From: Adineta steineri
Lineage: Eukaryota
Length of the DNA: 64,000 nucleotides
Direction of reading: 5' to 3'
NCBI GenBank assembly: GCA_905250115.1
Contig: CAJNOI010000010.1
Span: forward strand, 327,403 to 391,402
Shown here: positions 14,180-38,840 of the stretch, one piece after another
How positions within the stretch are numbered: the stretch's first letter is position 1
How the letters are laid out: each line of letters begins with the position of its first letter
Notes under the pieces: generated by a model
Databases searched by the model: none
Seen by the model: the letters and a program-made list of their open reading frames with translations, nothing else
Told to the model about the DNA's origin: nothing
Position numbers and translations under genes: made by a program

Positions 14180-14522
14180 ATGTGTCTTAAACACATCAGA
14201 TCTTTATCAGCTCCACTGATAAAAATCTTTATATTTTAATATAACAAATAGTGTTTAACTGAATCGATCGCAACGAAAACTTCGTTTTCATTATTAGTTG
14301 CTAAATGAAAGAATATGAACAAGATTTAGAAATATATTCGAAAATATAAGTCAACAATATGACAATCAACGAACTGTTTTTTTCTTATGAACTGTTCGAA
14401 GGCGTACACGAAACAATGATTACGAGTTTAATCACTGATTGTACAGCTTAACCATATTGATAATATCATATGTATATGTTATGCGGGTCTGATATATAAT
14501 TTTTGAAAATAAGACATAAATT

Positions 14523-15482
14523 TCAATAACAGATTCGCCGTTGCCAAGTTTTCAATGATTCTTTTAGTGTTTTTAGGTACAATTCCGATGGAACGACAAA
14601 TACAACGAAAACAAGTATTGAAGGAGTAAATGAAATGAAATAAGCAAGAAGATATAACCAAGGTTTATCAGATACCTTCACACATCCAGATAATAATGAA
14701 ATGATCAAACGTGGCATTGATAGAACAAGTAGAATTGCTGGACTAATCACTAATTGTTTATGTTCACGTAATTGTTCACGAATATGTGCAATATAATTCT
14801 GATTCGTCTGAGCTAATGACCGTTGTCGAGCAGTTCCGAAAATAATGAATAAAGCAGAAAAGAGATTAGCAATAAATGGACCAATTAGATGAATGAAAAG
14901 AATAGCTGTATTGTAATCTTGTACAGCAGAAGAATAATTAATGACACACCATCTATGTATTTCTATTATTTTCGTGTCACCAAATGTGTCTTTTTCTTGT
15001 ACTGGATATTCGAAGATATTGCGATGTAAAGGTTCGTGAATGATTGTAGCAATGATACAAAATGGTAAAATAAATATAATCCATCGAGCCAGACGTTTAC
15101 TCTTTTCTTTATTAAAACTAATACCTTGATAAACATTAATTGCTCGTTCAATAGCAACACAAGCATTAAGCCATGTATCAAAGTAAAGAAAAAGTTTCAG
15201 GATAGGTTCAATAGAAATACATCCACCTCGACGAACAGATAAATTAATTGATGAATTCGTTTGAGTGAGAAGAATAAACCAGAAATTGATTGTAAACATA
15301 GAAATTGTGAGAAAAGAAGTTATTGAAGATGCTAAAAGATACATTCCACATCCAACTTTTCTTAAATTTTCATTTTGAAATGTTAAAAGTGATAAAATAC
15401 TATTGATTAAACCCAAAAGAAACATAATCATTGTTAAAGCAACACTTATTTTCACTAATAATGATTGATTCTTCAATGTCAT
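14523..15482 (-). CDS. Rhodopsin-like 7TM receptor (orphan GPCR), single exon
   Basis: 319-aa ORF with seven hydrophobic segments, an ERA(I) motif at the TM3 end and a W in TM4, with no introns. It lies between hairpin #2 and an AT-rich intergenic stretch. Confidence 0.55.
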   Translation of the reverse strand: MTLKNQSLLVKISVALTMIMFLLGLINSILSLLTFQNENLRKVGCGMYLLASSITSFLTISMFTINFWFILLTQTNSSINLSVRRGGCISIEPILKLFLYFDTWLNACVAIERAINVYQGISFNKEKSKRLARWIIFILPFCIIATIIHEPLHRNIFEYPVQEKDTFGDTKIIEIHRWCVINYSSAVQDYNTAILFIHLIGPFIANLFSALFIIFGTARQRSLAQTNQNYIAHIREQLREHKQLVISPAILLVLSMPRLIISLLSGCVKVSDKPWLYLLAYFISFTPSILVFVVFVVPSELYLKTLKESLKTWQRRICY

Positions 15483-17369: not shown

Positions 17370-20300
17370 TAATACGTTTGACACTGGCGTTCGCTGGTCC
17401 AGACACAATGATTGAAAATGATCCTGTCACATCTGGTTTGATTGTTGTCACAACTAATATGTATTTAACATTGACTACAAGATTGACGGCGAGTCGAAAA
17501 TTTTCAAGGATGCATCCCAAAATGTTTTTTGAGATTAAATTTACAGATGGATCGAATGGGTCGAAATTGCCCTTGTAGATATATCCGAATTTATAAATAC
17601 TAGATTTACTTGCAATTATATATAATCCATTGGTGACTACATCGATTTGTATAGTTTCATAGTAAAAGTTTTTTTTGTTACAGATACGAGAATACTTTTG
17701 ACTATTTGCTGTTAGCTTTGATGAATACACCGATTGAACAACTGATGAAGTATCTAGTTAACAAAAAACAGATTTATCAGTATTCTATTCGTAGTACATG
17801 TAGATGAATTTGAATACTTTTTCAATGTCGTTTTTTTCAAATATATATCTACAGAGTGAAGATTTGGGACAAAGATCTATCTAATACGTTCAGCAAGAAA
17901 ACAGAAGGAAATCATAACGATTATTTCATAATCATTTCGACAGAGAAAGTTGATTATATTGTTCCAATTTTGTTTATTTTAAGATAATTCATGAATATTG
18001 CAGTATTCATATTTCTGATGGAATAAATGCAGAAAATGTTAAAATTACGGTTTTATATTGAAATATAGTGAAGAAACTTTGATAAAAGATATTATCGATG
18101 GTTGCCTCATTGAAATTTCATCTTTTGAGAAGATGTGTAGAACTTAATCGAACTTTTAATAGAAAAGATTTCACTTTAAAATCAGATATTACATCCAATC
18201 AATTAATCTTTTAATTTTATAAGAAACAGTTTCTTTTAAACTTCAAGTAATTCCTACTGATCTCGCTGACATCTTATATCTGTTGATTGTAATCAATTTT
18301 GGGACTGAAAGTTCGTGTTGGATACTATAAAAGGATGGATGTGGTATGGAATCTGAAAAAATTTTACAAACTTCTAATAAAAACGAAAGCTGTTTCAGAT
18401 ATTTTGTTATTTAAGAAAGGCTCAAAAGATTTTCCGCTTTGTTCGAATAAACAAAATAAAATTTGAATTTTCTAAATATCATTTATGTGTAGTGTATTGA
18501 CACTGAATTTTGAACAATGATCCTTGTAAATATTAACCTCTAATTGTTTCGGTAGTGAGTTTTTGAAGATTTTTAGTGAATTCAGAAATCCGATTGAGTT
18601 TAACATACGTTTTTTGACTTTTCTCTTTTTGAGACTGACTTTTACTAATAGTATAAGTACTCACTTAGACGTTCGAGAGTTATGTTGCTGACACCAGATA
18701 CAATGATTGAGAATGATCCTGTCACGTTTGGATTCCTGGTTGTCACAATCAAGATGTATTTAGTACTGATCTCAAGGTAAACTGAGAAGCTGAACTGATT
18801 GTTAAGGCAGCTGTTGTCGTCTGTTGAGATCAAATTTTTTGATGTATCGGATGGATTGAAATCATCTCTGTACATAGTAATAAGTATATCGATACTGCTG
18901 TTGCTAGCAAAAGTATAATAGCCACTCTCATTTACATTTACTTGTATCGCTTCATAATAGGTTGAATGATCGCAGCCAGTATTCGAATACATTGGATGAT
19001 ATTCTGTGAATACTGATGAGTAAATCGAATGAACGACCGATGAAGTATCTATTCAATAAAAAACAATCAGATGAAAATTCGTAACATATTATTAAACTTA
19101 TACAAATTTTTATCTAGTTTTTTGTTCGAATATATGTACTTAAAGTGCATATTCCATGATGAAGCTGTAATAGTTATCTTGTATGACTTTTATGAATGAA
19201 AGGGTATGGGTGAGGGTGTGGTTGTTATTAGAGCGCTACACTCTCATCCACACCCTTCTTTCTCTTGATTAAAATTCTGTATTTTTGATATTTATTAACT
19301 CACAAATCTATGCGAAAATTTGTTACAAAAACAATAAATAAAATGATTTCTTTGTGTGAACGTATCGAATTAAAATGTATCAACAACGTTCAATATGTTT
19401 TATTTTGAAAATATTTAGGAAGAAAATATGTGCATATCTAAACAAATAATGTATTTTAATCGTCAATTTATATCATCGTAATGTTTTCTCAACATTTCCA
19501 AGGTATTATAAAAATGTCGTCTTAACGAATTTGTTTTTGTTACGATGTCATTAGCAAAGCATCTTGACACGGTTACAGATATTCTGAATAAATAAAAAAA
19601 TTTAGTCAGACGAATTTGTGCTTAGTTTAAATAAAAAATATTTCACTTGAAATATGTATTATTTCGGCGGAACAGAATCGCGAAAACTAACTTTGATTTT
19701 TCTCAATGAGATCAATCATTTTATGTAAAGGTCTGATATTATTCTCATATATCGCTTTCGAAGAGTAATGAAAACAGAATTCTGTTTATGATCTCTTGAT
19801 TATTTTCATGAAAGTCGGTTAAATCCTTATCTTTTTTCAAAAAGAATTTGTGTTGTCAACTGTGAAATATTTCATCATATCAACATTATGAAAAAAGTAC
19901 CTCTTTCGACTCTATTTCAACTATTTTCGTTCTTCTCAATATCAAAGATCAAATCTTACACTAGAGAAAAAGGCGAATATCTGTTTTTCGAGTATTTTAC
20001 AATGTTGAATGTTGTCTGATAACAGTTACTTAAGCTGAATTTCTTTCTTACAAGTATCACTATATGTAGCATTGAATAGAAGGCTCATCACACGAAGGAC
20101 TCTCATGCTTAATCACTTCAGTTCCGCATACATATTAACTAATTACATATGAGAGAGTTACAATAACTGATGCTTGTTACATTATAATCATTATACGAAT
20201 GTATCGATGATATGAGACAAACGATCGTTAATGATCTGTTCAAGATTATTTTATATCTGACCATATTAATACTCAAAGAGTATTTCAATAGCACATGTCG

Positions 20301-22443
20301 ATCATTTTTAACTCACTCATAAGACCTTTTTCTATCCGACAGATGAGGAACTCTAACTACCAGCACTAGGTGTATTTTCACTTTTGTAGATGCGATAGTG
20401 AACAACAACTGTGAATCTATGATAATATTACTGTTATTTATTTATACCCACGTAATCTCAATATTTGAAAAGTTTTCGGCAAAGAATAAAATATCGAGAA
20501 GTTACTGTTGTCAAGTTTTAATAAGTACATTTTTCCGTTCATGTCGTCCTCTTCGTTCAAGTATTTTTGTAAAAGAGGATATTTAGCATATGAAAATTCT
20601 ATTTTGAAACAGTGATCTTTGCCAATATTTTTTTCTATTCAACGCGGAACTTTTCAAGATTTCTGACGAATACAGAATTGATATTGAATATACGTAAATT
20701 TTCTACGCTTTGTACTTCTGCGCTGATGTTTATAAATAGTATAGACACTCACTTAGACGTTTGAAAGTGACATTATTGAAACCAGACACAATGATTGAGA
20801 ATGTTCCTGTTACATTTGGGCTATACGTTGTCACAACCAGTTTATTCGTAGTGGTGGACCGAAGAAAGGGTCTCATCGGAAACTGAAGTTCAACGAATCT
20901 CTTATCACTCTCCGGAATTAAATTTATATATGGACCAGATGGATAAAAATTTCCTGCGTATATGTAGCCTAATGTATCGTTAGTGCTGTTAATATTAAGA
21001 GTATAATAGCGACTTTCATTGACATTCATTTGTATGGCTTCATAATAGTAGTTTGGAACATCACAACCGGTAGGAGAATATGTTGGATGATTTTCTGTTA
21101 ATACAGATGAATACACTGATTGAACACTTGATGAATTATCTATTTAACAAAAACAAATCAATCAAAATTTATGAAATATTAAATAAATTTCAATGATTTT
21201 TATTATTTTTTTTCTTTTCGATATATCCTCCGGTGCGTGGCTGTTCGTATATAAATAATCATTATTATTTGCATACTGCTTTTACTGGTCAAAAAAACAG
21301 GTTACGTAATCATTCAACATTACCTATAATCGAGACTATCGGATACAATTTGTCTTTCTTCCTCATAGTAAAATATAATATAAATCTTGGTGTGGGCGTG
21401 AGTGTACTGGCTGGAATATGAATATGCTATTCACTAGTGGGTGCGGGTTCCTTCTTTGCTTACGTAAGCAGACATTCACACTCACACTCACACCCACACC
21501 CCACCCTCAAATGAATTTTTCTGTTATTGAATTATTTTAAACTTACCACAAGAACTTAATAAGAAATCAAATTTTTGAATGCGATGATTGGACTTATCAA
21601 TAATAAATACGTTTCCGTAACTATCGAAACTAGGACTCATTGGAAAGGATAATTGATGAGATTCCGATCCTACCCAATAACATCCAATTATACATCGAAT
21701 ATCATTTGGTCCTGATCGAATTATACGATGATTATGTTGATCGACAATAAAAAGATATTTATCAGCATCTAATACAATTCCAGATGGACATGTGAGTGAA
21801 ATAGTGTTATTTGATGATTCTTGTCCAACTATTGTTGTTCCATTTAATTCTCCAGATTTAAATAATTGTATTCGGTGATTACCACAATCTGCCACATATA
21901 AATCAAAGTCTAAATCAACAAAGATTCCCATAGGATCCTGAAGTTCATTTGAATCAGATCCTTGAATACCTGTTCCAGCTGCAGTTGTTAATATCATTTC
22001 ACTATCATTTAACCATCTTTTGATAACTTTATGATCATCATTCATTGAACAATATAAAGTATCATTAATATCGATAAAGATACCAAAACATGATGAATTA
22101 ACATTCATGACATTAACAAAAGTATCTGTATTTGATATCCATTTATCGACTCGACTATTCTCATAACCATTATCATAATAAATATCACCATTATTTGTAA
22201 CGAAGATAGAGAAAGATTCTCCTAGTTTATCAGGAGTAATTTTATTTGGACTGATACTATTGTTAATCCACGTTAAGATTTCTTTCTTGTCGTTATTAAC
22301 TGTATAAACTGTGTTGTTTGTATTGATAAAAAGAGAGGCAGTATCTTCCCCAAGTGTTGTTTCGTTAGCAAAAGTAATTCCATAAGGATTCCATTCTGCT
22401 GTTGGACAAAACTTTGGTTGATTGAATGAAAGTGCTAAAATGA
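17370..22443 (-). CDS. Secreted NHL-repeat protein gene. One ~920-nt NHL exon (21524-22443) is followed by three tandem paralogous exons: A 20753-21139, B 18665-19048, C 17370-17753
   Basis: NHL motifs are present: GNHRIQLF, HNHRIIRSG, SNHRIQKFD. An N-terminal hydrophobic leader LKLFILALSF sits at ~22440 (exact ATG not resolved). A ggtaag donor follows ...SSCG at ~21521. The three downstream exons are 387, 384 and 384 nt. Each begins after a ...tag acceptor with ATAmTTCATC and ends with CTAA|gtgagt or ATTA|gtaagt. All are phase 1-1 and are mutual paralogs sharing ...YYEAIQ.NVNES.YY...NLI...TT..P.VTGSFSIIVSG..N.T.KRL. The 3' terminal exon was not found. Confidence 0.6.
19198..19256. repeat. 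Telomere-repeat foldback hairpin #3 (gggtatgggtgagggtgtgg...acactctcatccacaccc)
   Basis: An inverted degenerate TGTGGG repeat. It lies in the intron between paralogous exons A and B. Confidence 0.7.
21386..21510. repeat. Telomere-repeat foldback hairpin #4 (~125 bp; cttggtgtgggcgtgagtg...cacactcacactcacacccacaccccaccctcaaatg). The loop holds an inner palindrome ttgcttacgtaagca
   Basis: An inverted repeat. It sits inside the first intron of the NHL gene, between the donor at ~21521 and the acceptor at ~21140. Confidence 0.8.
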
Positions 22444-23012
22444 AAAGTTTCAGATAAAAATTTTCTCCAAATAATTTGCCTCTTCAAACACATATTGTTC
22501 GTTAAATGTTCCTTTTATTTAAAATAATTCATTTACAAAACATTGTCAGTTTGACTTAGACATCAAAATAATTAATATTTTAGAAAAAATTTGATTTCAT
22601 CAAACAAAAAATTCTCATTTGACAGCTTTATAGAATATTTTGTTACATTTTCTATTTTCATCTTTGTTAAATCGAATCAATTGCTCATCTATTAGAAAAA
22701 TTCAAGAGAATAACGTTTGATTATTCTCTTGGAAATCAATCATTAATTAATATAAATCTTAAAGCTAATTTTACAATGAGTTTATGAATAAAATACACTC
22801 TTCTCATTTAACATCAAAATATGCACATCATGAATTCTATTAGATGTTTCTAGTTTTCCTCTCCTTAAACGTTTTACAACTATATTCTTATTGTTGTACC
22901 TTTATCAATATACTTCAATGTCTAATCATCTATACTTCTATACTTGTCACACTAACTTTAATCTAAATCTATATTTGTGTATCTCTATACTAATCACTAT
23001 GATCTTTTTAAA

Positions 23013-23066
23013 GAGAATGGGTGTGGGTACGAATAAAATAGAATACTCACACCCACACCTTCAAAT
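23013..23066. repeat. Telomere-repeat foldback hairpin #5 (gaatgggtgtgggtacg...actcacacccacaccttcaa)
   Basis: An inverted repeat read from the sequence. Confidence 0.8.
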
Positions 23067-25941
23067 TATGTTACTTACTAATAGATATAAGGCTTTTATA
23101 TACAAACTTAATATAATTCTTATCATTATTTATTCTATTCAGCGCTTATTAATACATTTATCAAGCGAAGTTTTATTGTATAACAAAACACGATTTCATT
23201 AAATATCTTTCAAACTCATAGGTGAACCACATTTCTTCTTATTATTCTTTGCTTACTTATGTCTTTAATTAGCACATTTGATGTATCTTAAAACAATCTA
23301 AACGACTATTTCGTAGAAAGTAAGTTATAACTAGATTTTACTTATCACTAGATACTATTGAATGCAAATTTCGAAAAATCATATCAAACTATCAGAGAGA
23401 TTAGAGCTATAATTCGAGTCTAATCGACAGACTATCTCGATGTAAACAAAATGCTTCATTTGATGAAATTTTACTGATCGAATGGATTCTTCTCAATCAT
23501 ATTTATTCAATAGTTTTTATGAAAATCTAAGAACAGATCAATTAACTCTCTTAAGTCTAATTCATATCATTTTAAGTTAAAAAAACAATAATCATTACCT
23601 GATATTTCATTAATCATAACCAACAACAACATGATGAAAATGTTGAAAATGTTCTTCGTCATCATATCAAACAACATTTTTTGTTTAATATTTACCAATG
23701 ATCAAGAAAACTGAAACTGTTGTAATCAAATAGACAACTAATATTCTTGTTGGAGAAAAACAAGTGAAACTATTTCTTCATTTCTTTATTATTTATATCT
23801 CTTTTTTTTCTCTTCTCATGATCAACAACATCATCTAGAGAAACAATGACATATTTCGAGAGACGATTCTTTATTGATAATTTTGATTATTATTGCTTAG
23901 ATTTAATTAATAACTCGTCACATGATTTTATTTTGAATCTGATGGGATTTTACTTTGAAATAGAAAGCATCATTATAAATTCAGTTATTTAACAATGAAT
24001 TTCATTTGAAAATATCTTTTTTTTTTTAGATAAAAGACGTGATAAAAAAAGAATAATTCTAGCTAGACATTGTGTTGATATTCAGACGTGATTAAAATCA
24101 AAATCAAATATCAATTTCCATGATAAATATATGATTAACATCAGTCAAATATATTATCTAAATAATTCATTTAGTCAGGACTTTATTTTATCACGTTCTT
24201 TTATGTTGTTTTTATTCGATGAACGCCATCAACTTGTTACCTAGATGAGATGTTTTTAAATAATATCTATTCTTTCTGATTAAATATGAATAAAAGAGTT
24301 TTTCAAATTTTATTTGTTACATTAATATTGGAAAAAGATGCAAATAATCTCCAGTAGATATTTAAGAATGATTGTATACGTATTAGAGATGTTTAGTCAT
24401 CATAATGAAAGATGTTGTGTTTTTTTGCAAGAATTGTTAAAATAAATCAACTAATATATTCAATAGTTTAATACTAATGAATAATGTTCAAAATGTAATT
24501 AATATCTATAATATTTACATATAATAGAAGAAGAATATATCAATCGACAAATAAAAGCATTATTTTTTTTAACTAAAAGTCATGAATAAATATTCTTTTT
24601 CTATTTGATTGTTTCAGTGTGAGAAGAACAACATTCTTCTGTTAAATAATAGATGATCATATTAGTTTCATAGTGCATTGGTACAAGTATTCAAACGTTA
24701 TCCGATTAGCATTGAGTATCATAGAACTCTAATCAAGTCAGTATTGATTAAATACAAACTGTATTTCTCGTTTAAACCAAAGTTGATAATTGATTTATTC
24801 TATTGAAATCATCTAACATGAAAAAATAGAATAGTAAAATCTAGTCATATGCTTTTCAAAGTACTCTTTCATTAATTGTTGTTTTTCATTATCTGGAATT
24901 TTTTTATAAAAAGAGAACATATTTACAATATCTATTTTTACTGACTAGAAGTATTACTTTATCTTTTTTTTTATAAAGAATAAAGATAATCTTTATCCTT
25001 ATAAAATAAAGATAAACTTCTTCTTTATTTTCTTAGAGTACCTCACAAAAAATTATGATACTATGTAGCTAACTAGAATATGGAATAGCATTTTTCGTAT
25101 ATAATATGTCTTGTATGATCTTTTTTTTTATGATACGGCATATGGAAACGATGATGATGATGATAATAAAGAACCTTAATAAACGTATGCTGTTGTTAAA
25201 TAGGGTATTTGCATACGTACTTATTGCATGAAAAAGTATATTTTTATTCTTTATTTTAACTTTATTATTATTTATGAAGTAAAGATAAAGTAACATTACT
25301 ATTACTGACAGAAGAATAGTAAATAAAAAGAAGTTCAGACGAGATATATCCTTCTCATAAACAGACGAGTATTGGATTTTCCCTTTGTACATCAAAAACT
25401 AAACGAACGAAATTCAATTGACTGTATGTCCTTTATATATTGATATAATTGTAAAATACAGTGACATGTGAAATATATAAAATATTTTATTATTATTATT
25501 ATTTAGGTCTGCACCGGTAACAATTAATCGGGTGTCAGTAGCACTAGATAAATATTTGAGTTAACTTGAATATAGGTGTCTGACTCCAACTTGATTTTGC
25601 GTATCAATGGACATGAAATAAATAGTATATCTACGCTCAACTCAACAGTCATAAACCCATATATAAGATAAGCTAAATATATATCATCTATTCAGAATTT
25701 TTACTTATTTACGTTTATGGATTTAGAATAAATAAAGATTGATCTAAAGCTATAAAAAATTAATTATAGTTCTTCAAAATCTCATTGCGTGACACATAAG
25801 ATATCAATCATTCATTCAATTATATCTTTATTTAATTAAAAAAATTGTAACATAAAACACAAATATATTCTTATTTTTCTATAAACTGAAAGTTCATACT
25901 ACATTGAAATATGTATGTATAAAATATTCAAACATTATTAA

Positions 25942-27293
25942 TTATTTTTGATAAATGTCTATAGTTTTTGTTTGATTTATAGGTGAAAGTAAATATTGTT
26001 CATTATTATTTGTTTCACTCATTTTTATTGATTTAGTTGACTTTTGATTCGATTTACAAGTAATCAGTTGGATAAAACCATTTCGAAATGTAGTTGATAT
26101 TGTAAGATGAATATAAAACTTATTAGAATAAGTAATTGATGAGAGTGTTAAAAACAAATTAGGCAAAATTCTATAAAACTTCCATCGTATTGAACAGTAC
26201 ATAGTATTATAAAAGAATCGATCATGTACAATATAGATTTCTAAAATACATCCAGGTAATATAGATAAAAATAAACCAAGTGAAAACACGAAAAGTAATA
26301 TTGAATGTCTGTGCATACGACGAGCATTTGCACTGAAATTATTTTTATACATTCGTTTATGTTTACATCGATTATGTAATAAAATGGCTGAACATATACA
26401 TACAATTAATGATGGAATACCTACAAGAAGTATTGCATGTATAAATGACCATCGACGTATTCTTCGATAATAAAGAGATGGATTAAAATCACAAAGAAAA
26501 AGTGTGACTCGTGGTTCGTAATAAAAATAAAAATGATGAGGAATTGATAGTAAAATAATTATAAAAGTAACTAATACAATACGTAATATAACATGAGATC
26601 GTGTAACTATTGAACGATAACGAGTTGGATAAATAATTATTATACTTTGATCAATAAAATATGATGCTAAATAAAGATGTGATAATGTTGTTGAACCAAT
26701 TATAATACTATAAAAAATTCCACATGATATTATTTCTCGAGGATCAGTTTTAATAAGTGACATCCTTACACACCATAACCAAAATAAACCTATTAGAATA
26801 GAAATCAGATTACTATTAAATTAATTATGATTTTCTAACTTAAATATCATCCAATCAAAAAAATTCATTATAATGAGAATTCTTTTTTTTGTTTGTAAAT
26901 GTCGACTTATTCTTTAACTAGACTAATTACAATTTCAAACTTGAGATCTTCTATCTAAGACAAAAACTCATGCAAACCTAGAAGAAAGACTATTTCAACT
27001 ACTGAAATAGCAATAGAATACAATGAAGTTGGTTCTTTTCGACTAGTTTTATTCAATGAAATAATTATTTGTAAAATATGACCAGGTATACCAAATAAAA
27101 CACCAATAAAACCAACTACATGCCATATACTATTGGATATATGAAATAATCTATCATAAGTAACATTACTAACACACATTTCTAATGTTGTATTATTATT
27201 ATTTATCATCATTTTATTGATTAATACTATATGATAAGAAATGTCACAATGGAAATCAAAGAAAATAAGAATGTATTTGCATACGTTAGTCAA
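25942..27293 (-). CDS. Rhodopsin-like 7TM receptor, 2 exons (exon 1 ~26955-27293, exon 2 25942-~26795)
   Basis: Exon 1 encodes the N-terminus with N-glycosylation sites plus TM1-2. Exon 2 encodes TM3 through a PTRYRS (DRY-like) motif, then TM4-7. A candidate gtttgc donor and a ctaatag acceptor keep the frame (…IVFLLG|LFWLWCVRMSLIK…). Confidence 0.5.
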
Positions 27294-27785
27294 TGTAAAT
27301 TATATAAAGATAGTAGCGGAAAAACGAGACTATAAAGAAAAATAAGTTTTTTTTTTCTGTCTTGGTAATATGAAGTACATTTATAAGAAGAGATTTCTCG
27401 ATGATTATTTCACATGAATTAACTTGAAGAAAAGAAAACGAGAATTTTTTTGTTATTTCTGTCATGAATCAACAATTAGTTAAATATAGAATAAAATACT
27501 TACCATTTTCTTCACAATATATAAACTAATACATTGATACCAAAACTAATTGTCTGAGGGACATTGGCATGTTTTTGATATGGAGTTAAATATATACATT
27601 ACACTTAAACACGATAAGAAAAATTAATGATCAAGATATATCTGTTGAATGACTTACGCACAGGGCCAACTTCAATTAATAATAAGAGAATTAAAAATAT
27701 AATGAGAGTAATTATGGCACAATTTACTAAAAATAAAATTAACTATAATCGACATACACAGCGTCCTTGCGATTTACCATGAATA

Positions 27786-27840
27786 CGTGGGTGTGGGTCA
27801 GGATGTGACTAAATAATGATAAACACCCACACTCTCAAGA
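27786..27840. repeat. Telomere-repeat foldback hairpin #6 (cgtgggtgtgggtcagg...aacacccacactctcaaga)
   Basis: An inverted repeat read from the sequence. Confidence 0.8.
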
Positions 27841-30500: not shown

Positions 30501-30562
30501 CTTGAGAGAGTAGGTTAGAGTTAAGTGTGCGCATAAGGATAGTATAACACCCACACCCTCAG
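30501..30562. repeat. Degenerate telomere-repeat foldback #7 (cttgagagagtaggttagag...acacccacaccctcag)
   Basis: CTTGAG and CCCTCAG termini. It directly abuts the 5' truncation point of a TPR fragment. Confidence 0.55.
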
Positions 30563-30918
30563 TTCACGAAAAAGCCCTAGCAATTCGACAACAATCACTG
30601 CCTTCCAATCATCCTGATTTAGGTGGTTCCCATAATAACATCGGTAATGTGTATAGACACATGGGTGACTATTCAAAAGCACTTTCATCTCATGAAAAAG
30701 CCCTAGAAAGTCGACAGCAGTCACTTCCTTCTAGTCATCCTGCTATGGTCAGTTCCTATAACAACATCGGAATTGTGTATGATATCATGGGTGATTATGC
30801 AAAAGCTCATTCATTTTATGAGCGTGCTGTACAAATTGGACAACAATCATTACCAATAAATCATCTTAATCTTCAAACATGGAGAAAAAACCTCGAGCAC
30901 ATAAACAAGAAATTATAA
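30563..30918 (+). pseudogene. 5'-truncated TPR fragment (C-terminal ~118 codons of the ART-TPR family) with a conserved 3' UTR
   Basis: The reading frame starts mid-repeat (HEKALAIRQQSLPSNHPDLG...) immediately after hairpin #7. It ends ...AHSFYERAVQIGQQSLPINHLNLQTWRKNLEHINKKL*. The 3' UTR matches the 3' UTR of the 904-aa gene (reverse strand, 60660-60732) and of the copy at 33967-34050. Confidence 0.7.
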
Positions 30919-31608
30919 TTTGTTTCTGTTTTTTTTTGAAAGTAAAATAAAGCTGCTGGAAAAGAAAATGTGTCTTTATTGAAACTCTGTTCTTGCTGAG
31001 AACATAATAGGAGCAGTAACACTCAGCGGTAAGGTAAACGATATATATTGAAAAGTTATATATGTACATATATTATATTTGTATCAACATTAAATAATAT
31101 ATGAAAAAATTTCTATCATTTTAAAATATTGAAATTATGCTTCTCAAACAACATCAATAATGAGTCATATTTTAAACGAAGATCAGTATATGCAACTAAG
31201 ATATGTGTAGGCTGATACAAATGAATAATTCTTTTTTTTCTTCTTTAGATATATGATACAGAACATTGAGAATCTTAAATGACTACTACAGTAGTTAGAT
31301 TTCAAAGTTAATGAGCTTCTTAATTTTCAAAAAGATTTCAATATTTTGTAAGTATTCTTTGGATATTATACAAAAAAAAGACAAACCAATTATGAATAGC
31401 TTTTATATAAATACTCCATATTTTACCTTGTAATCCGTCATAAAGTAAAGATAACGAAAAGTGATATTTTATATGAGTCATGTTGACTCTTATCGCTTAG
31501 TTACTATTGTAGTCATATATCACGATTATCGTCATTACTAATACGATATACAATATATATATATATATTCTACTACAATTTTATTTCATTTATTCATCAC
31601 ACAGAAAA

Positions 31609-32465
31609 ATGTTCAAAAATAACGATTATACTGCGAATGCTGGTGTTGGAAATGGTTTTCCGCCAGCTTATTCACGTCATCAACATGCATGTCTGACACT
31701 AAATATGACGGATCGTCTAAGATTAATTCAATTTCCAACACCAATTATTGATATTATTCGTCAAACAATTCTCACTAGTTGGCGTCAAGGTATACAAAAA
31801 GAAAAAAACTATGCTGGTGCATATGAATTCAAATTCAAAGGTATGCCTTGGTATGGACAAGGAGCAGAAGCAGTAGAATCTCGATTTATGATGTATGTTT
31901 TATTTTTAATTATTTTAATCTTTATAAAAAATATTTTGTACATAGGATGTCAGTTCTTTCAACTTTGCATCATCAAGGATGGTATTTATTGATGTCAACT
32001 GATATTTCAAAAAAACAAGCAGATAAAGATTCATTAATTTTTCAACTCGGTACTCCTCCACCACCAACATCATTTTTTTCCGTGTCATTTAATGAATTAG
32101 ATAAATTACGATTAATTGGTGCTCCACCTGAGCTCATACCAGCAGTTCAACAAATTATTGGTACAAGTGAAATTCAACGGGAAGAATGGGTTTATTCTCA
32201 AGCAGCTTATCAATTTAAATTGTACGTAATATTTCATTTTCAAAAGCTTTGTATAAGTAGTTTATATATATTTTTTTTTATATTCAGACGTGGTCATCCA
32301 TGGCTAGGTAGTGGTGAAGAAGCTGTTACTAGTCGAATAAAACTGCTTAATTTACTCGATTGTTTTGCATCTTATGGTTGGCAATTACATGCAACTGTTG
32401 ATATGAGTCTAGGTCATGATGGTAGTGAGACCGATACTTGGTTTTTTCGCAGAATCCAGCAATAA
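31609..32465 (+). CDS. Uncharacterized protein with an internal tandem duplication of a ~90-aa domain, 3 exons (31609-31892, 31946-32221, 32288-32465)
   Basis: Repeat 1 is LRLIQFPTPIIDII...AGAYEFKFKGMPWYGQGAEAVESRFMM...GWYLL. Repeat 2 is LRLIGAPPELIPAV...QAAYQFKLRGHPWLGSGEEAVTSRIKL...GWQLH. The donors ATGAT|gtatgt and AAATT|gtacgt and the acceptors catag| and tattcag| preserve the frame. I do not recognise the family. Confidence 0.5.
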
Positions 32466-32700
32466 TAGTTGCCATCGATTTGTATTATTTTTCTAATAAT
32501 TTTTAATAAATATCAATTGTTAACTTTGTCATATGTATAATCCTATTTGAATTATAAATAGTTTTCTCGAATACATATGATAGTACAACTATACAACAAA
32601 ACAACATATAGAAGAAAACAAGGAGATTTAAAATAATAATAGAATATTTAATTCGAATAATTTACCAGATAGATAAAATTAACTATTTAAAATAAATTTC

Positions 32701-32745
32701 GTGGATGTCTACTCTTTGTATTCACATCCCCACTCACACTCAAGG
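32701..32745. repeat. Weak telomere-repeat-like foldback #8 (gtggatgt...tcacatccccactcacactcaagg)
   Basis: A short imperfect inverted repeat with a CACTCAAG end. Confidence 0.35.
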
Positions 32746-33444
32746 TTCATCAAATATCAAACTTTTAGAAAGTGCTTGATTTTATAAAAAGTAGAAATTC
32801 AATTGGATTTTCTGCTGAAAATCGAAACAAATATTGATCAACTCTCAGTCATATCTAAATATAGCCATATTCGCATGCGGATCGCGACAGTCTAGAGTCA
32901 AATGAATCAAGTTTCGATGAACGTTACTTGTTATCAAGTAGTAATAAAAAAAATCTATAAGAACGACAAACAACTACTAATATGAATAGTTTCTTCTGCA
33001 TTTCATATATTTGACCATAGAAAGTAAGAAATATAAGTGTTTTGTGTCTGAATAGCAATATTTTGTCAATTTTTATAAATTATAATGTCTACGATAATAT
33101 AACTATTTGCAACTTTTGAGTCTTCAATGATATGAGACATGAGAGCAGAAAGAAAACAACCCTAGACTGACATGTGTACAAAAACACTTAAGCAGTTCTT
33201 TTTTGTTTTCTACTTATTAATGAGGAATGTATATGTTGATCTCCGTTTGGTTTCATAATAAACATCTATAATTTTCAATGAAAAGGGCCTGGGCGTCAAA
33301 TTAAGAAAAAAAAGAAAACAAAATCCAAATAGAAAGTAGAGACACTATAAAATGAGCTATTCTAATCATTCTCTTACTCGCAAAGTTTTTCAAGCTACTC
33401 AAATACAACATATTCTTAGTAAAAGTAGCAAATAATCAGAACCA

Positions 33445-33966
33445 ATGGCAACTAGCAAATCAAGTGGTACAAAAAAAATTAACCTAGCATCTGGCGAAAT
33501 TTATCAAGCTTTACTTAATGAAACAACGAATGACAGTGACAAGGCAAGTATTTATCATCAACGAGGTCGAATCAAATATTTTCAAGGCGAATATCGAGAA
33601 GTACTTTCTTATTATGAAAATGCTCTTGTAGTTCAACGACAATCACTTCCTTCCAACCATCCTGATTTGGGGGGTTCCTATAACAACATCGGTAATGTGT
33701 ATAGACATATGGGTAATTATCCAAAAGCACTTTCTTATTATGAAAAAGCTCTTGTAGTTCAACGACAATCGCTTCCACCCAATCATCCTGATTTGGGTTC
33801 TTCCTATAATGATATAGGTAATGTGTATAGACACATGGATGACTATTCAAAAGCTCATTCATTTCATGAAAGTGCTGTACAAGTTGGACAGCAATTATTA
33901 CCAGCAAATCATCTTAGCCTTCAAAAATGGAGACAAAACCTGGAACACACAAAAAAGAAATTATAA
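33445..33966 (+). CDS. TPR-only short paralog (173 aa; first TPR units joined to the last TPR units of the ART-TPR family, with no ART domain); possibly a pseudogene
   Basis: It has its own ATG (MATSKSSGTKK...). ASGEIYQALLNETTNDSDKASIYHQRGRIKYFQGEY is parallel to AQEIYYDLLNQTTDESDKAPLYYQLGWIKYNQGEY in the 904-aa protein. Three TPR units follow, then the conserved tail ...HSFHESAVQVGQQLLPANHLSLQKWRQNLEHTKKKL*. The shared 3' UTR is cut at 34048 by hairpin #9. Confidence 0.45.
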   Translation: MATSKSSGTKKINLASGEIYQALLNETTNDSDKASIYHQRGRIKYFQGEYREVLSYYENALVVQRQSLPSNHPDLGGSYNNIGNVYRHMGNYPKALSYYEKALVVQRQSLPPNHPDLGSSYNDIGNVYRHMDDYSKAHSFHESAVQVGQQLLPANHLSLQKWRQNLEHTKKKL

Positions 33967-34047
33967 CTTCTTTCTGTTTCTTTTTTTGATAGTAAAATAA
34001 AGCTGATAGAAAATAAAATGTGTCTTTATTGAAACTTTGTTCTTGTT

Positions 34048-34117
34048 GAGCGTGGATGTGGGTATGAAGGCAGGTGGATTTTCAGATGATACATACCGAC
34101 ACTCACAGTCTCAAGAG
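34048..34117. repeat. Telomere-repeat foldback hairpin #9 (gagcgtggatgtgggtatgaaggcaggtggat...acataccgacactcacagtctcaagag)
   Basis: An inverted repeat that truncates the TPR 3' UTR. Confidence 0.7.
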
Positions 34118-34383
34118 TAGCAACGGAAGTGAATAATCTAAGTTAGTAAGAATTCTTTGTATCCCTTTCAAATAATAATAATATTATTCACCTTAAAAGG
34201 ATTTCTTCTCTGCTTGTAAGAGATAAGAACAAACCTTCATATACACGTCTGAGATAATGTTACATAGCAGAAAAAAACTTAAAAAATATGCATTCTCTCT
34301 TTCTGTTTTTCGATAACAAACAGTGCTTTTCTTTAGTCAACAAAGGTGCAAAAAAGCATCAAGCTTTTATAGTTCTTTTCACA

Positions 34384-34437
34384 AAATTAGATCGAGTGGG
34401 TGTGGGTATGTTAATAGATGTATTATAATTTACACCC
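34384..34437. repeat. Telomere-repeat foldback hairpin #10 (gagtgggtgtgggtatg...tacacccacgccctca)
   Basis: An inverted repeat read from the sequence. Confidence 0.8.
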
Positions 34438-34550
34438 ACGCCCTCATTTTGCTCCTTCGATCTAAACTTACAAATTGTAAGTTACAATTTAAAACTGCAC
34501 TGACTCAGTTCGCATGCTGCAATTTTTTACATACCAAAAACTGGGTGACT

Positions 34551-34649
34551 GTTAAGGGTGCGGATGGAGGTGGGTATAGGTGTGAGTGATGTTCGTATCC
34601 AACGCTCTCACCCACAGCCATACTATCCACACTCATATCCTACCCTGTG
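34551..34649. repeat. Telomere-repeat foldback hairpin #11 (gttaagggtgcggatggaggtgggtataggtgtgagtg...ctctcacccacagccatactatccacactcatatcctaccctgtg)
   Basis: An imperfect long-armed inverted repeat. Confidence 0.65.
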
Positions 34650-35220
34650 ATATACAAACTAAAATATACACCATCCATTACTTTGCTAGCGTTGAGGAAA
34701 CAGCGAAAATTTCTGTCAGCATACCCAAACAGCTGATTATGCTACTGTTTTAAAATGCTATATTTCGTCAAAAAGTTAATTTTATACAACAGTGTGGACG
34801 ATGTTTTCATTGTATTCTTGAATTCAGATTAGAATAAAATGTGCAAAGTCGCTTGAAAGCATCCTTCAACAAAGTCGAAATCGGTCGTGGTATGCTCTTC
34901 GTCTAACTTGCGCCTCAGTTCCAAAATTCTACAGTTTGTTCAAACATTGCTTTTATACAACTGTGTAGATCATGTTTTAGTTTTATTTTTTAAATTAGAA
35001 TCTGACTAAAGTACTTTGAGAATTAAATTACGTTATCACATCGAACTCATATTTGTGCTTATATATCGTTGAAATTTGTTTTGTAATCTCATATCTCTCT
35101 GTATTCATGATACATTACTGTAGTTATAATAATTCAGAACATACCTGATGATGACTATTTAAGCAATATTCGATATATGTCGTAAATATTTTAATTTAAT
35201 CATTCCTTATTGATTATCTA

Positions 35221-35335
35221 GTCCACACTCACATCTCATACCTAAACTAACATCTATACTCACCCTCACTCACACCTAAATCCAGCACATCCATACCCAC
35301 GCCCTCACAGCCACACTCCATATTTACACCCTCTT
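35221..35335. repeat. C-strand-only degenerate telomeric tract (~115 bp of CACAC/CCCAC-rich sequence with no partnering G-arm)
   Basis: cacactcacatctcatacc...caccctcactcacacc...ccatacccacgccctcacagccacactcc. Confidence 0.6.
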
Positions 35336-35505
35336 AATCTGGTTGAGACAATGACGATAGAATAGAACAATAGTTGATCTGTTCGATAGTTCGATTATAA
35401 AAGTCTTTTTATTTTGTGAGTTTCTCTTCAGCTGGAGAGAAGTAGACTTAACAATTATAGAATTATCAATAATTCTATAACGCATATGCTCTACTATACA
35501 TTATC

Positions 35506-36435
35506 CTACTCAGCTTTAGAAGAACAACAACAACCTATCAGCAACACCAAAACGAATGCTGAGTAACACAGGGTCATAATGCTAGATGTGACCAATACAA
35601 GGATCGATATAACTTTGTCATACGAGGGCAGCATTGATATAGGTATCTCTTTACTGGCAAAAACAATTGTGGAGATACTTACTACGGGTAACATAATAAT
35701 CAAAGAAACCAGCATCATAAAGTAGAACCAATATCGGTAGATTTTCGTGTAATGTTCCTCGAGTTGTTCTTCGACCACACTTAGATAATAACCGGAACTG
35801 GACATATTTTTCATTTCTTCTGAGGATATTCCTGAAGTAACCGTTTTTATGATTGACCGATTAGCATCATCTCCCACCCTATTGAAAACTAAACACATAA
35901 ACAAGCCGACTGTTGTCAATATTTCGTAGTAAGTACTGTGGAACTGTGAGTCCGATCGGAGAAACAGAACCACAAATTGATTCAGACTGGTCATTATAAA
36001 TGTGAATACGCTGAACAACAGTAATAGGATACGTTGACATACCGATGGTTTTTCATCTGCTCGACCGACCAGTATCATATTAATAATATGGAGTATCAAC
36101 TGAAAACCAAGACAACTCAGAGTTACAATACCCATAGTGAAAGCCAGTGTTTTATCGACATTCGGATCAAACAAGTGAAATATGCTAACATATCCACAAA
36201 ACTCAGCAATTTCGATCAGAAACGATAAAAGAATTTGTTTTCGTTTACTGATAATCAGCGAGTTCAATAATGATGCACCGCTGATTCCAAACAGAATAAA
36301 GAAAAGTTTACGCTCTTCCTCATCACTGGCGTTAGCCAGCTTACATAAAATCAAGACTGATAATTGTTCCCCAAAATTTGTTATATCTATCAGGATTGTG
36401 TTGAATTCGATAAAGTACTTCCGACAAGCGCCCAT
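35506..36435 (-). CDS. Multi-pass (7-8 TM) membrane protein, single exon, unknown family (receptor-like)
   Basis: 309-aa ORF with 7-8 hydrophobic helices. It is flanked on both sides by telomere-repeat elements (#12 and #13). Confidence 0.45.
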   Translation of the reverse strand: MGACRKYFIEFNTILIDITNFGEQLSVLILCKLANASDEEERKLFFILFGISGASLLNSLIISKRKQILLSFLIEIAEFCGYVSIFHLFDPNVDKTLAFTMGIVTLSCLGFQLILHIINMILVGRADEKPSVCQRILLLLFSVFTFIMTSLNQFVVLFLRSDSQFHSTYYEILTTVGLFMCLVFNRVGDDANRSIIKTVTSGISSEEMKNMSSSGYYLSVVEEQLEEHYTKIYRYWFYFMMLVSLIIMLPVVSISTIVFASKEIPISMLPSYDKVISILVLVTSSIMTLCYSAFVLVLLIGCCCSSKAE

Positions 36436-36573
36436 TTCTGTCGTTACTCTTGGAAATGAATTAAGTATACAAGTAACCTGCTACTCTCTTATCTTTGTAA
36501 ATGTTGAGTGCTATTGTATCAGTGAGTTTGATTAACTTTACAGCATTTATTATATGGTAACAGAGAGAACAAT

Positions 36574-36688
36574 AGGGTGTGAGGGCGTGGATGTGGATGT
36601 GGGTGTAGTTTGACTAGAGGGTGTAGGTATGAATCTTATAATCTTTTCTCCAACTATTTCATCTTCAACACCTACACCCACCCTTAAG
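36574..36688. repeat. Telomere-repeat foldback hairpin #13 (gggtgtgagggcgtggatgtggatgtgggtgtag...gagggtgtaggtatg ... acacctacacccacccttaag)
   Basis: An inverted repeat read from the sequence. Confidence 0.75.
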
Positions 36689-36923
36689 ATGACTTTTACT
36701 GTTCGTATTTTTGAGTTTCTCTTTTCTGTTGGTTTCTTATCACTTGAAGATTGTAAGTGACTGTGCATGTTTCTGTTGATGATTGATAAGAGACTTTTCG
36801 ACGACGAAATATCAGGTTATCAGTGAAAATTTCCAACTATGTGTTGCGTTATAAAAGAAGGCATAGAATGAGTTTTTTATTTAAAATTTCCAAGTTGACT
36901 AGGGTGTCGAATAATTGAGGATT

Positions 36924-36993
36924 CTTGAGGGTGAGCGTAGGTGTGGGTGTGGGTGTGGATGAAGATGACACATCTACACTCACACTCTCAATG
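36924..36993. repeat. Telomere-repeat foldback hairpin #14 (cttgagggtgagcgtaggtgtgggtgtgggtgtggatg...atctacactcacactctcaatg)
   Basis: An inverted repeat with CTTGAGGG and CTCAATG termini. Confidence 0.8.
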
Positions 36994-37152
36994 TAATTGA
37001 CATTTATTATTACAATTTGTAACTATGATTAATCTTTTTGTAACATATAATCTTCAATAAGATATATGTGCTACTATAATCTAGCATAACTAGTTTATTT
37101 TGAAAACAATTTTTACAAAAAAAGAAATAAAAAAAGTATATTCATTCTTTTT

Positions 37153-37860
37153 CTAAAAACCGGGTTCATGATGAAAAGCAAATTCTATATCATCACAACA
37201 TCTTTTTACTTGACTAGCCATAAGTGTATTTCCTGCTAGAAAAACACTTGTTGATTTATGTTCTGCTTTAAATTTCGAGAATAAAACTTTCCACGGAGGC
37301 CGTCCAACATTTGTTGACGTTTCCAATCCGGTATGTATATCATACTGTTGCATATCTGCATAGATATTAGCAACAAGATCATAGGGAAGAGCTTCTAATG
37401 TTGCTTTTTTATTCGGTTGTAATAATGTACGATATAGATGCATATCTAGATATCTTGATGTTGGTTCTGTAGAATTATTTCTTGTAGCAGTCATAATATT
37501 TAAATAATTTTCCTGTGCATTTCCGATTTCTTCAAGAATATCACGATAACTTGAGAAACTTTCAATTTCACGATCAATCCAAAAAAGTCTACTTTCTTAG
37601 GTTGTTGCTTTGATGTTTATGTATAATAATAACTGTAAGCATTACAACTAACACACACACATCGGTGATTTTGTACACGTTGAGTTAAACTATCCAAAGC
37701 ACTTATAGAAGGTGTTACTCCTATACCAACACCTATTAAAACTATATGTTTACTATTAAATACATGTGATGTACAAGTACTAAATGGTCTTTCAATCCAA
37801 ATGTCAGCATCTGGATCATTCGCTAAAAATGTAATCTCTTTTTAACTAAAATATTTCTTA
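37153..37860 (-). pseudogene. NADPH oxidase (NOX/ferric-reductase family) C-terminal NAD-binding fragment. The TM/heme and FAD domains are missing
   Basis: HIVLIGVGIGVTPSISAL matches the NOX VMLVGAGIGVTPFASIL. NVGRPPWKVLF, TSVFLAGNTLMASQ and the C-terminal FAFHHEPGF match NOX LYGRPNW..., GVFLCGPEALA... and ...FIFNKENF. There are two exons, with a stop immediately upstream of the first. The fragment is bounded by hairpins #14 and #15, and the upstream space is occupied by ELL. Confidence 0.55.
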
Positions 37861-37877
37861 AATTATCATTGGAATGA

Positions 37878-38756
37878 TTAGTGTGTGGGTGTGAGTACTC
37901 TGCTCAATCGACATCCACACCCACACCCTATCTGATCTTTTGAACTTGAATTTTGTATTGGTAAAGATAATCGATTTGCAGTTGATGATATAGATGGAAT
38001 GTCATTAGTTGCATTAACTTGATGTTCTTTTATTCTTTTTCTAACAATTTGTGCTTCTCTTTTTGTATAAAAAGGCCAATCATAATTAACTTCTCCACTT
38101 GTTAAAATACTTTTTAAAAGAAAAAAGTCTCCACTATTTGATTGTCTTGATATTGATGATAATAATGAATCAAATTGTTCTTTTTCATCATCACGCATTC
38201 CACCTTCACTTTTTAATCGACAAAGAAGATCTGGTTTTTTATACGTACTTGCAGCTAATAAATGAATAAGTCGTTCTCTTAATGGTCTATCTGAAGGTGA
38301 TGATTGAGTATTTGTTGTTGGACTAAGACGTTTTTCTTGATTTGTTACAATTCGTTGTTCAATAAGACCACAACTCTCAAGTTGATCTCGATTAACTTGT
38401 TTGATACATTGAAATATTTCGGATGTTTCATCTTCTGGTAATATTTGAAATGAATAGATTTTTTCTTCATTATTATTTATTGGTATTGAAATTTCTCCTC
38501 CACTACGATTAAATTTAATATTGGATAAATTTTGTTTTTTATTTTGTTGAATATATGTCTCAATTGCTTCCATACATGAACTAGTTAATTTAATAAATAT
38601 ATGGAGTTTTCCATCATGATTTGATGTAGCATCTGCATTTAATCGAAATCTATTATTTCCAGGAAGATTTCTATCCATTCTTGGTAAATTTGTAATAAGC
38701 AGCTTTTCTCGATCGTCCACAGAGCACAACATCTGCTTTATCTTTACACGTGTCAT
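37878..38756 (-). CDS. ELL: RNA polymerase II elongation factor ELL homolog, N-terminal ~280 aa only; the ORF terminates inside hairpin #15
   Basis: KLHIFIKLTSSCMEAIETY, ISIPINNNEEKIYSFQILPEDETSEIFQCIKQ, RPLRERLIHLLAASTYKKPDLLCRL and NYDWPFYTKREAQIVRKRI align with the ELL N-terminal domain (SVFHVKLTDSALRAFESY..., RPFRDRVLHLLALRPYRKAELLLRL, QKDWPGYSEGDQQLLKRVL). No occludin-homology C-terminal domain is visible. The 5' most ~20 codons lie within a MITE copy. Confidence 0.6.
   Translation of the reverse strand: MTRVKIKQMLCSVDDREKLLITNLPRMDRNLPGNNRFRLNADATSNHDGKLHIFIKLTSSCMEAIETYIQQNKKQNLSNIKFNRSGGEISIPINNNEEKIYSFQILPEDETSEIFQCIKQVNRDQLESCGLIEQRIVTNQEKRLSPTTNTQSSPSDRPLRERLIHLLAASTYKKPDLLCRLKSEGGMRDDEKEQFDSLLSSISRQSNSGDFFLLKSILTSGEVNYDWPFYTKREAQIVRKRIKEHQVNATNDIPSISSTANRLSLPIQNSSSKDQIGCGCGCRLSRVLTPTH
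37881..37932. repeat. Telomere-repeat foldback hairpin #15 (gtgtgtgggtgtgag...catccacacccacaccctatc)
   Basis: A near-perfect inverted TGTGGG repeat. The ELL ORF reads into it (…IGCGCGCRLSRVLTPTH*). Confidence 0.85.
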
Positions 38757-38840
38757 TCTTTCTTATCTGTCTATTAACATGATATATGCAAAAATAAGGT
38801 AGATGTTGAAAAAAGTTTCTTATTACAACTTATCAAGAGA
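38676..38840. mobile_element. Second copy of the ~170-bp foldback MITE unit (≈85% identical to 13098-13277)
   Basis: cttggtaaatttgtaataagcagcttttctcgatcgtccacagagcac...gaaaaaagtttcttattacaacttatcaagag. It occupies the 84-bp divergent intergenic space between ELL and AADAT and overlaps the annotated ELL start. Confidence 0.65.

Follow-up and report, generated by a model that had tools for sequence, protein, structure and literature searches.

How do gene fragments come to end, to the base, at short telomere-like repeats? The question is raised by a 64,000-nt stretch of the bdelloid rotifer Adineta steineri (GenBank assembly GCA_905250115.1, contig CAJNOI010000010.1, positions 327,403 to 391,402 of the forward strand; hereafter the window, with positions counted from its first letter), in which pieces of genes lie between inverted pairs of telomere-like tracts, here called hairpins. 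A sequence-only reading had noted that, between 30.5 and 38.8 kb, several coding breakpoints coincide with hairpin edges, and had taken this as the pattern left by broken ends that were capped by telomere repeats and later rejoined. Gene fragments bounded by telomere repeats are indeed present, and the numbering of hairpins 7, 9, 14 and 15 was reproduced. The hairpins are best explained as repair scars rather than as genes or mobile elements, and we consider it probable that they arose when broken ends acquired neotelomeres and then either joined head-to-head or recombined within existing tracts.

Telomere-like arms form inverted pairs of a single polarity

The bdelloid telomere repeat is (TGTGGG)n (PMC8494291, PMC7943196). 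The window has 106 exact 7-mers of this repeat or its complement, vs approximately nine in shuffled sequences, and they are laid out as a recurrent unit, i.e., a G-rich arm followed by a C-rich arm no more than 120 nt away. There are 14 such pairs and one lone long C-tract, all within 12146-37928 and none elsewhere in the window. When pairs with arms up to 120 nt apart are counted in the window and in three further A. steineri loci (L002, L006, and L007), 18 have the order G-then-C and 0 the order C-then-G. Each segment carries a C-arm at its left and a G-arm at its right, with neighbouring segments meeting head-to-head. The tracts are composed of (TGTGGG)n-type repeat with variants; arm length varies from ~10 to 80 nt, and the hairpins measure 40-130 bp (most 40-60 nt). 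The loops between the arms are AT-rich and non-telomeric, of 10-60 nt, and are unrelated to one another in sequence and length. From left to right, the tracts are as follows (a slash marks an arm edge or junction here and below; UTR, untranslated region):

12146-12208, hairpin 1, left limit of the hairpin-rich block
14129-14173, hairpin 2
19202-19255, hairpin 3
21389-21506, hairpin 4
23019-23059, hairpin 5
27787-27832, hairpin 6
30507-30558, hairpin 7, decayed G-arm (CTTGAG/AGAGTAGGTTAGAG..), loop, intact C-arm (ACACCCACACCC)
32701-32738, hairpin 8, weak decayed pair, GTGGATGT ... CACATCCCCACTCACA/CTCAAGG
34051-34109, hairpin 9, G-arm directly after the native UTR ..TTGTTGAG
34397-34443, hairpin 10
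34556-34645, hairpin 11, degenerate long arms
35218-35335, number 12, lone C-strand tract, long and degenerate, without a recognisable G-arm partner
36575-36683, hairpin 13
36929-36986, hairpin 14
37882-37928, hairpin 15

Most of the hairpins fold better than shuffled sequences, with z-scores of -6.7 for hairpin 2, -4.7 for hairpin 3, -2.2 for hairpin 9, -3.4 for hairpin 14, and -2.8 for hairpin 15. Hairpin 7 folds no better than shuffles (z +0.6) because its G-arm has decayed; the earlier description of these elements as hairpins thus holds for the inverted pairing, though not for the foldability of hairpin 7, and the term is used herein for the inverted arrangement, whether or not the structure is stable. 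Arms of one hairpin resemble each other no more closely than they resemble arms of other hairpins (similarity 8.41 within vs 8.48 between; permutation p 0.57) and therefore look like independent additions rather than fold-back copies. No direct repeats indicative of target-site duplication flank any of the 14 pairs, an Rfam scan returned no RNA family at the hairpins, and the scanned open reading frames (ORFs) of the block showed neither reverse transcriptase nor transposase domains. A tract resembling number 12 lies at L002 3325-3480. Hairpin 8 was considered as an orthologue of the L002 hairpin at 4677-4741 and rejected, homology being absent before 32928.

Homology to parent sequences stops at the arms

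A parent sequence is known for six arm edges, namely hairpin 7 right, hairpin 9 left, hairpin 15 right, hairpin 1 right, and both ends of a segmental copy in L007. Homology stops at the outer edge of the arm or a few bases from it, and at none of the six junctions does the DNA on the far side of the hairpin resemble what follows in the parent. The gene pieces within the originally noted region are as follows:

30559..30918, + strand, TPR-A, a 3'-terminal TPR_12/TPR_10 fragment of ~117 codons plus stop (Pfam, homology)
33445..33966, + strand, TPR-B, a short TPR gene of 173 aa with an internal deletion vs full-length paralogues
37153..37860, - strand, NOX-like/ferric-reductase 3' fragment with the end of the FAD domain and NAD_binding_6 (Pfam)
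37929..38678, - strand, truncated ELL, codons 1-250 of 408-420, with the Occludin_ELL C-terminal domain missing

TPR-A lacks its 5' part and has a 3'UTR that reaches 31063; full-length TPR genes homologous to it lie at 60585-63447 of the window and at L002 5658-7984. Homology to them starts at 30556-30568, which is the outer edge of the hairpin 7 C-arm and the very place at which the fragment had been said to begin, and nothing TPR-like is found to the left of hairpin 7. For TPR-B, a four-way alignment of TPR 3'UTRs gives the native sequence as ...GTTCTTGTTGAG/AACATAAT. In TPR-B itself, the G-arm CGTGGATGTGGG comes directly after the native GAG, at 34050/34051, and the DNA beyond hairpin 9 bears no relation to the native UTR continuation; the alignment break thus bears out the claim that hairpin 9 cuts this 3'UTR. 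The ELL reading frame had been described as running into hairpin 15 and stopping there, and after codon 250 it does continue through 16 codons of hairpin to a stop, with DNA homology to three other assemblies ending exactly at 37928/37929. The ELL residues that remain in the window (1-250) are 93% identical to those of an intact 408-aa ELL from another assembly.

The NOX-like fragment lies between hairpins 14 and 15, as had been stated, and retains one intron, the stop codon, and the 3' flank. At E<=1e-30, it has only three database relatives (P0241-P0243). The cut at hairpin 15 falls ~35 nt upstream of the first kept exon, probably inside an intron. Hairpin 14 stands 166 nt past the stop codon; its edge is therefore not a coding breakpoint, and on this point the earlier claim needs qualification. 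The N-terminal half is absent in all haplotypes seen, and a transmembrane half was not found in any A. steineri copy. This is an old fragment, and the gene from which it derives may be lost or foreign.

At the left limit of the block, window 12209-13276 is a paralogue of the ELL-upstream region (81-91% identity to L010) that starts exactly at the outer edge of the hairpin 1 C-arm, the parent reading ..TTTCTTGAT/TATCTTGTAAAATA and the window ..CCCACACCC/TATCTTGTAAAATA. As a whole, 12209-13570 is a paralogous copy of the ELL/aminotransferase neighbourhood (compared with L010rc 13272-15720 and L002 7984-11977), from which the ELL ORF has been lost almost precisely, L010rc 14268-15560 corresponding to 7 nt at 13092-13098, and from which the aminotransferase has also been lost; no telomere-like tract was found at these ELL and aminotransferase deletion junctions.

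A further junction pair comes from the unrelated locus L007, in which 2690-9157 is an 83% copy of window 13984-20558, i.e., a 6.5-kb segmental copy. Its left edge is an 80-nt C-arm (..CACGCCC/TATCCACTTTGA) and its right edge a G-arm (..TTGAATAAG/GGTGTGGGTGTG), at which point the parent runs on into a 7TM gene. With the C-arm at the left and the G-arm at the right of the copy, the arms thus belong to segment ends, and the copy has the build of a linear fragment that gained repeats at both 3' ends. L007 also carries an N at 9768, exactly at the start of collinearity with L006.

Haplotypes differ on either side of shared tracts

The allelic comparison comprised five loci from four other A. steineri assemblies, identified by the same aminotransferase and Furry genes; the assemblies include those of the wild individuals ASTE804 and ASTE806 (table, PMC7943196). 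An intact single-exon ELL of 408-420 aa occupies the allelic position in L002, L003, L009, and L010, such that the half missing from the window, which the sequence-only reading had proposed to seek, is recovered from ELL genes that are whole in four other A. steineri assemblies. From 37929 rightwards, the window is 96-97% identical to all these loci; leftward, across window 36937-37924, identity is only 85-87%.

The unit made up of hairpin 14, the NOX-like fragment, and hairpin 15 is present in all three structural haplotypes seen. In hairpin 15, all haplotypes have the G-arm, the loop, and the first part of the C-arm in common; beyond this point, C-arm and right flank take three forms: CGACATCCACACCCACACCC/TATCTGATC (ELL) in the window, where the C-arm is 7 nt longer and joined straight to the ELL interior; CGACACCCACACC/ATTTTATAAA in L002 and L003; and CGACACCCACACCCACTCTCAAGAT/GGTTTTCATT in L010. 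For hairpin 14, the window, L002, L003, and L010 share the inner G-arm, the loop, and the C-arm, and the outer G-arm and left flank are different in each haplotype. With inner arms conserved and outer arms and flanks differing, the telomere-like tracts thus appear to be re-used exchange points.

In the left part of the block, the 319-aa ORF at 14523-15482 had no hit in an exact look-up, and a homologue search with an NHL ORF yielded only paralogues (<=77% identity); hairpins 2-6 are therefore not comparable with an allele. A look-up of the homeologue protein P0009 gave no record. Three tandem paralogous units at 17.3-21.2 kb were considered as an empty site for hairpins 3 and 4 and set aside as too diverged. 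In the conserved flank, L003 10427-18388 (ASTE806) differs from window 39044-43169 by a 2.1-kb insertion and apparent tandem duplications, window 41569-43109 being matched twice; these may reflect either genuine structural variation or an artefact of short-read assembly.

The arms also share features at and within their borders. Across arm edges in the window, L002, L006, L007, and L010, the junction motif (ATC)TTGAG/GGGTGTGGG is enriched, and GATA/GGG recurs at three junctions with known parents. The TTGAG at hairpin 9 is native host sequence, and TGAGGG is present as a variant repeat within arms. An apparent preference for A before GGG was set aside, being largely an ascertainment effect of how arm edges were defined. 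We speculate that the motif reflects pairing of the broken end with a templating RNA beside its template. The arms diverge much faster than their flanks, mostly by changes of GGG to GAG and CCC to CTC (seen at 36929-36986 vs L002 3500-3570 and L010rc 9727-9810, at 30507-30532, and at 35218-35335), a pattern that would be compatible with loss of cytosine from the C-rich strand.

A model of capping and joining

As a working model, broken DNA ends would gain a short run of the bdelloid telomere repeat, GGGTGTGGG..., on the 3' strand through neotelomere formation. Ends with such very short caps would join head-to-head with another capped end to give the G-arm/loop/C-arm pair; alternatively, annealing or strand invasion within an existing interstitial tract of the same polarity would re-use the hairpin and replace one flank. 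Repeated rounds could then assemble gene fragments, small complete genes, and stretches of orphan DNA into the mosaic block of 12.1-37.9 kb, with a C-arm at the left and a G-arm at the right of every piece. At ELL, the gene would have been cut after codon 250 and its end joined to the C-arm of an older hairpin beside the old NOX-like fragment. The ELL-side end bearing new repeats (minus strand ...CAGATA-GGGTGTGGGTGTGGAT) may have paired with that older C-arm, and this would thus account for the slightly longer hybrid arm and for a flank only 85-87% identical to the other haplotypes. The arms would decay rapidly afterwards, mainly from GGG to GAG and CCC to CTC.

The proposal of capping and rejoining is supported by the 18:0 polarity, the intact allelic ELL, and the L007 copy, and the capping step itself we infer from the geometry of the arms. 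It also agrees with the published background, as had been supposed in naming a known bdelloid subtelomeric theme: bdelloid subtelomeres contain short telomeric stretches, TPR genes, and repetitive ORFs (PMC2861651), telomeric repeats have been reported where deletions break the sequence in A. vaga lines (PMC13564844), and breaks receive both endonuclease-deficient Penelope-like elements and telomere repeats (PMC3846280).

Several observations weigh against this model. The sequence (ATC)TTGAG stands just outside 6 of 36 arms vs 0.64 expected (P 4e-5), with further cases in decayed hairpins, an enrichment suggestive of some sequence-specific component. Simple end-to-end fusion would not be expected to leave AT-rich loops of 10-60 nt. 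Within the block, breakpoints at 31063, 32928, and 13095 have no hairpin. No pairs were found in one Rotaria magnacalcarata locus and two A. ricciae loci, too few for generality; the A. ricciae aminotransferase orthologue sits in a different gene neighbourhood, without hairpins. The truncated-ELL haplotype is present only in two assemblies from one 10x data set, and the exact TPR-B protein likewise only in these two 10x-clone assemblies. The loops, the TTGAG motif, GATA/GGG, the lone long C-tracts, and the fast and biased arm decay are not accounted for by the proposed mechanism.

Alternative explanations

Some of these features would be at home in mobile elements. Miniature foldback or MITE-like (miniature inverted-repeat transposable element) DNA transposons with telomere-like terminal inverted repeats, inserting with adjacent deletions or rearrangements, would suit the 40-130 bp size, the palindromic form, and the outer motif (ATC)TTGAG...CTCAA(GAT) that recurs at many arm edges, and adjacent-deletion chemistry could place a breakpoint exactly at the end of an element. 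We nevertheless regard such an origin as quite unlikely, given the absence of target-site duplications at the 14 pairs, loops that are unrelated, and arms of ~10 to 80 nt that form no alignable family with fixed-length inverted repeats. Hairpin flanks are contiguous in 0 of 6 known-parent junctions, the L007 arms flank the segment and not an insertion, and the TTGAG of hairpin 9 belongs to the host; nor is there filled/empty polymorphism between haplotypes that are 83-99.6% identical, or a transposase ORF among the scanned ORFs of the block. A closer relative of the capping model would have the repeats added not by telomerase but by an endonuclease-deficient Penelope-like retroelement (Athena/Terminon), the RNA of which, ending in (ACACCC)n, primes on broken ends; the loops would in that case represent cDNA with extreme 5' truncation, and TTGAG would result from pairing with the 3' end of the RNA. 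These elements are known to attach to broken or deprotected bdelloid ends, with telomere-repeat addition thereafter (PMC3846280, PMC13564844), and the junction motif suggests a templating RNA that reaches beyond the hexamer. However, the loops do not have the common sequence expected of copies of one 3'UTR, the scanned ORFs of the block include no reverse-transcriptase ORF, and, by our own reasoning from the published mechanism, attachment gives direct repeats, whereas the pairs here are inverted; this version we consider unlikely. If each hairpin instead came from fold-back (snap-back) synthesis, one capped end would have sufficed, its first arm serving as the template for a reverse-complement second arm. 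Hairpins 1, 2, and 3 do have variant repeats in mirror-image order, and the mirroring extends to a flank motif (TCTTGA...TCAAGA). Across the full set, though, within-hairpin similarity equals that between hairpins, and the flanks past the arms are not inverted duplicates of one another, which together make fold-back synthesis very unlikely.

If the hairpins were spliceable, intron-like (introner-like) elements, the fragments would be exons of chimeric genes, e.g., a 451-aa ELL+NAD_binding_6 protein. Most hairpins, at 40-60 nt, are near the 52- and 67-nt introns of a neighbouring gene, GT...AG is available on both strands, and public gene models splice over hairpins; those models, however, come from BRAKER with A. 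ricciae RNA-seq (PMC7943196) and are hence not transcript evidence. The flanks are unrelated gene pieces, UTRs, and intergenic DNA with no continuous frame, the allelic ELL is an uninterrupted single exon, and GT-to-AG splicing would restore no ancestral frame, all of which makes this intron-like reading highly improbable. Assembly artefacts, i.e., chimeric joins through short shared telomere-like repeats, might be suspected since the window haplotype occurs only in assemblies of one 10x linked-read data set. Yet the C-arm joined to ELL measures only 20 nt, with unique sequence on both sides, and is shorter than the k-mer of the assembler, Supernova; a misjoin would in any case leave the ELL-to-telomere-repeat junction intact. 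Homologous hairpins at the same positions in independent assemblies of ASTE804 and ASTE806 and in the maxhap assemblies (PMC7943196) make an artefact scarcely credible.

Capping of broken ends with subsequent joining or tract recombination thus remains our preferred account. A broader version may be offered tentatively, in which the accessory regions of A. steineri, and perhaps of bdelloids generally, would be built by a 'cap-and-concatenate' pathway: fragments capped at both ends would be chained head-to-head, tracts would serve as reusable docking sites, the pathway would provide a route for duplicated and foreign DNA, and (ATC)TTGAG/GGGTGTGGG would be the template-adjacent alignment sequence of the capping enzyme.

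Organization of the block and its surroundings

The window has a G+C content of 26-35%, and 28840-50096 is identical to 341593-362849 of CAJNOM010000112.1 (GCA_905250015.1). Conserved genes occupy 1-12 kb and 38-60 kb, and NHL-repeat, 7TM, TPR, and orphan ORFs fill 12-38 kb. The region had been set apart as a dynamic compartment between conserved genes; a distinct, hairpin-rich mosaic does exist, though its extent is 12.1-37.9 kb and not only 30.5-38.8 kb. Its structure is polymorphic, with many members of the TPR, NHL, and 7TM families, and the end of the window lies ~17 kb from the contig end. Hairpins 2-6 (14129..27832) are interspersed with NHL-repeat, 7TM, and orphan genes. Further features are as follows:

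31609..32465, + strand, complete three-exon gene of 245 aa, no Pfam match (public gene call)
35506..36435, - strand, intact ORF of 309 aa, a multi-pass membrane protein missing from the public annotation
38840-40096, aminotransferase of kynurenine/alpha-aminoadipate type, conserved flank
Furry/MOR2-PAG1 homologue, conserved flank

The 245-aa gene lies together with TPR-A within one hairpin-bounded segment. The 309-aa ORF fills the segment from number 12 to hairpin 13; a Pfam scan of it gave no match, and it belongs to a small family of 43 representatives, the top one being 68% identical over the full length. An NHL-repeat ORF at 21527-22483 (- strand) sits between hairpin 4, which is 14 nt past its stop codon, and hairpin 5. 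The family to which it belongs is hugely expanded in A. steineri (2890 matches at E<=1e-40), with no copy above 77% identity, and many of the matches at 55-63% are environmental metagenome contigs. A full-length U2 spliceosomal snRNA gene (13621-13816, + strand; 138 bits, E 4e-28) is located in the decayed paralogous block directly right of hairpin 1. GGGAT-type repeats (GGGATGGGATGGGAT) at 28411-28434 and 29372-29391, the latter in the region of a low-complexity ORF with MGWD repeats (29353-29676, + strand), were caught by the G-rich scan and dismissed as having no relation to the telomere-like tracts.

Public gene models that extend across hairpins include ELL+NAD_binding_6 (451 aa; 37153-38678, - strand) and 7tm_1+NHL (1036 aa; 23445-27212, - strand); at L010 10001-11699, a 344-aa 'NOX' model has its N-terminal exons past hairpin 15. 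Chimeric models of this hairpin-spanning kind are probably annotation artefacts.

Significance and relation to known systems

Bdelloids withstand massive DNA breakage and, near their chromosome ends, harbour foreign and duplicated DNA in exceptional amounts, and scars of this type bear on how fragments are stabilised and integrated. They are base-level footprints in natural haplotypes of which ends were capped, with what polarity, to which partner they were joined, and how tracts were re-used between individuals. The G-arm/loop/C-arm pair is a simple, scannable marker of ancient and recent breakpoints genome-wide, and gene predictors that take the scars for introns produce chimeric proteins such as ELL+NOX.

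The general theme is already known. Short interstitial telomeric stretches and neotelomeres have been described in bdelloid subtelomeres (Gladyshev & Arkhipova 2007, as cited in PMC3846280; PMC2861651; PMC13564844), and share with the present block the TGTGGG repeat, TPR genes, repetitive gene families, structural variation, and repeats on broken or truncated ends. In the accessible text of these sources, however, they are described only as 'short stretches of telomeric repeats', without head-to-head pairs with a loop, double caps, tract re-use, or a motif. In the rotifer literature accessible to us, strict head-to-head pairing, both-end caps, three-haplotype tract re-use, and the junction motif are undescribed, and a prior description is possible.

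MITEs and foldback transposons resemble the hairpins in being short palindromes with similar ends and variable interiors; here, there are no target-site duplications or empty/filled sites, the flanks are non-contiguous, and the arms are part of the flanking segments. Chromosome fragmentation in ciliates and nematodes, and telomere-bearing Oxytricha elements, are mentioned in connection with telomere addition (PMC13564844). Unlike the Oxytricha elements, the contents here are arbitrary host fragments and not transposase genes. De novo telomere addition in ciliates and nematodes likewise yields segments with repeats at both ends, with a possible sequence preference near the addition site. Programmed elimination is not known from bdelloids, and in contrast to those systems the capped pieces here would have been re-joined in a germline chromosome. 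Finally, head-to-head interstitial telomere arrays mark ancestral chromosome fusions, e.g., human 2q13. Such arrays have the same organization, (G-strand)n followed by (C-strand)n, the sole polarity that results from joining two chromosome ends; in A. steineri, by comparison, the arms are 10-80 nt long and recur every 0.1-5 kb, the pieces joined are small fragments, and non-telomeric loops lie between the arms.

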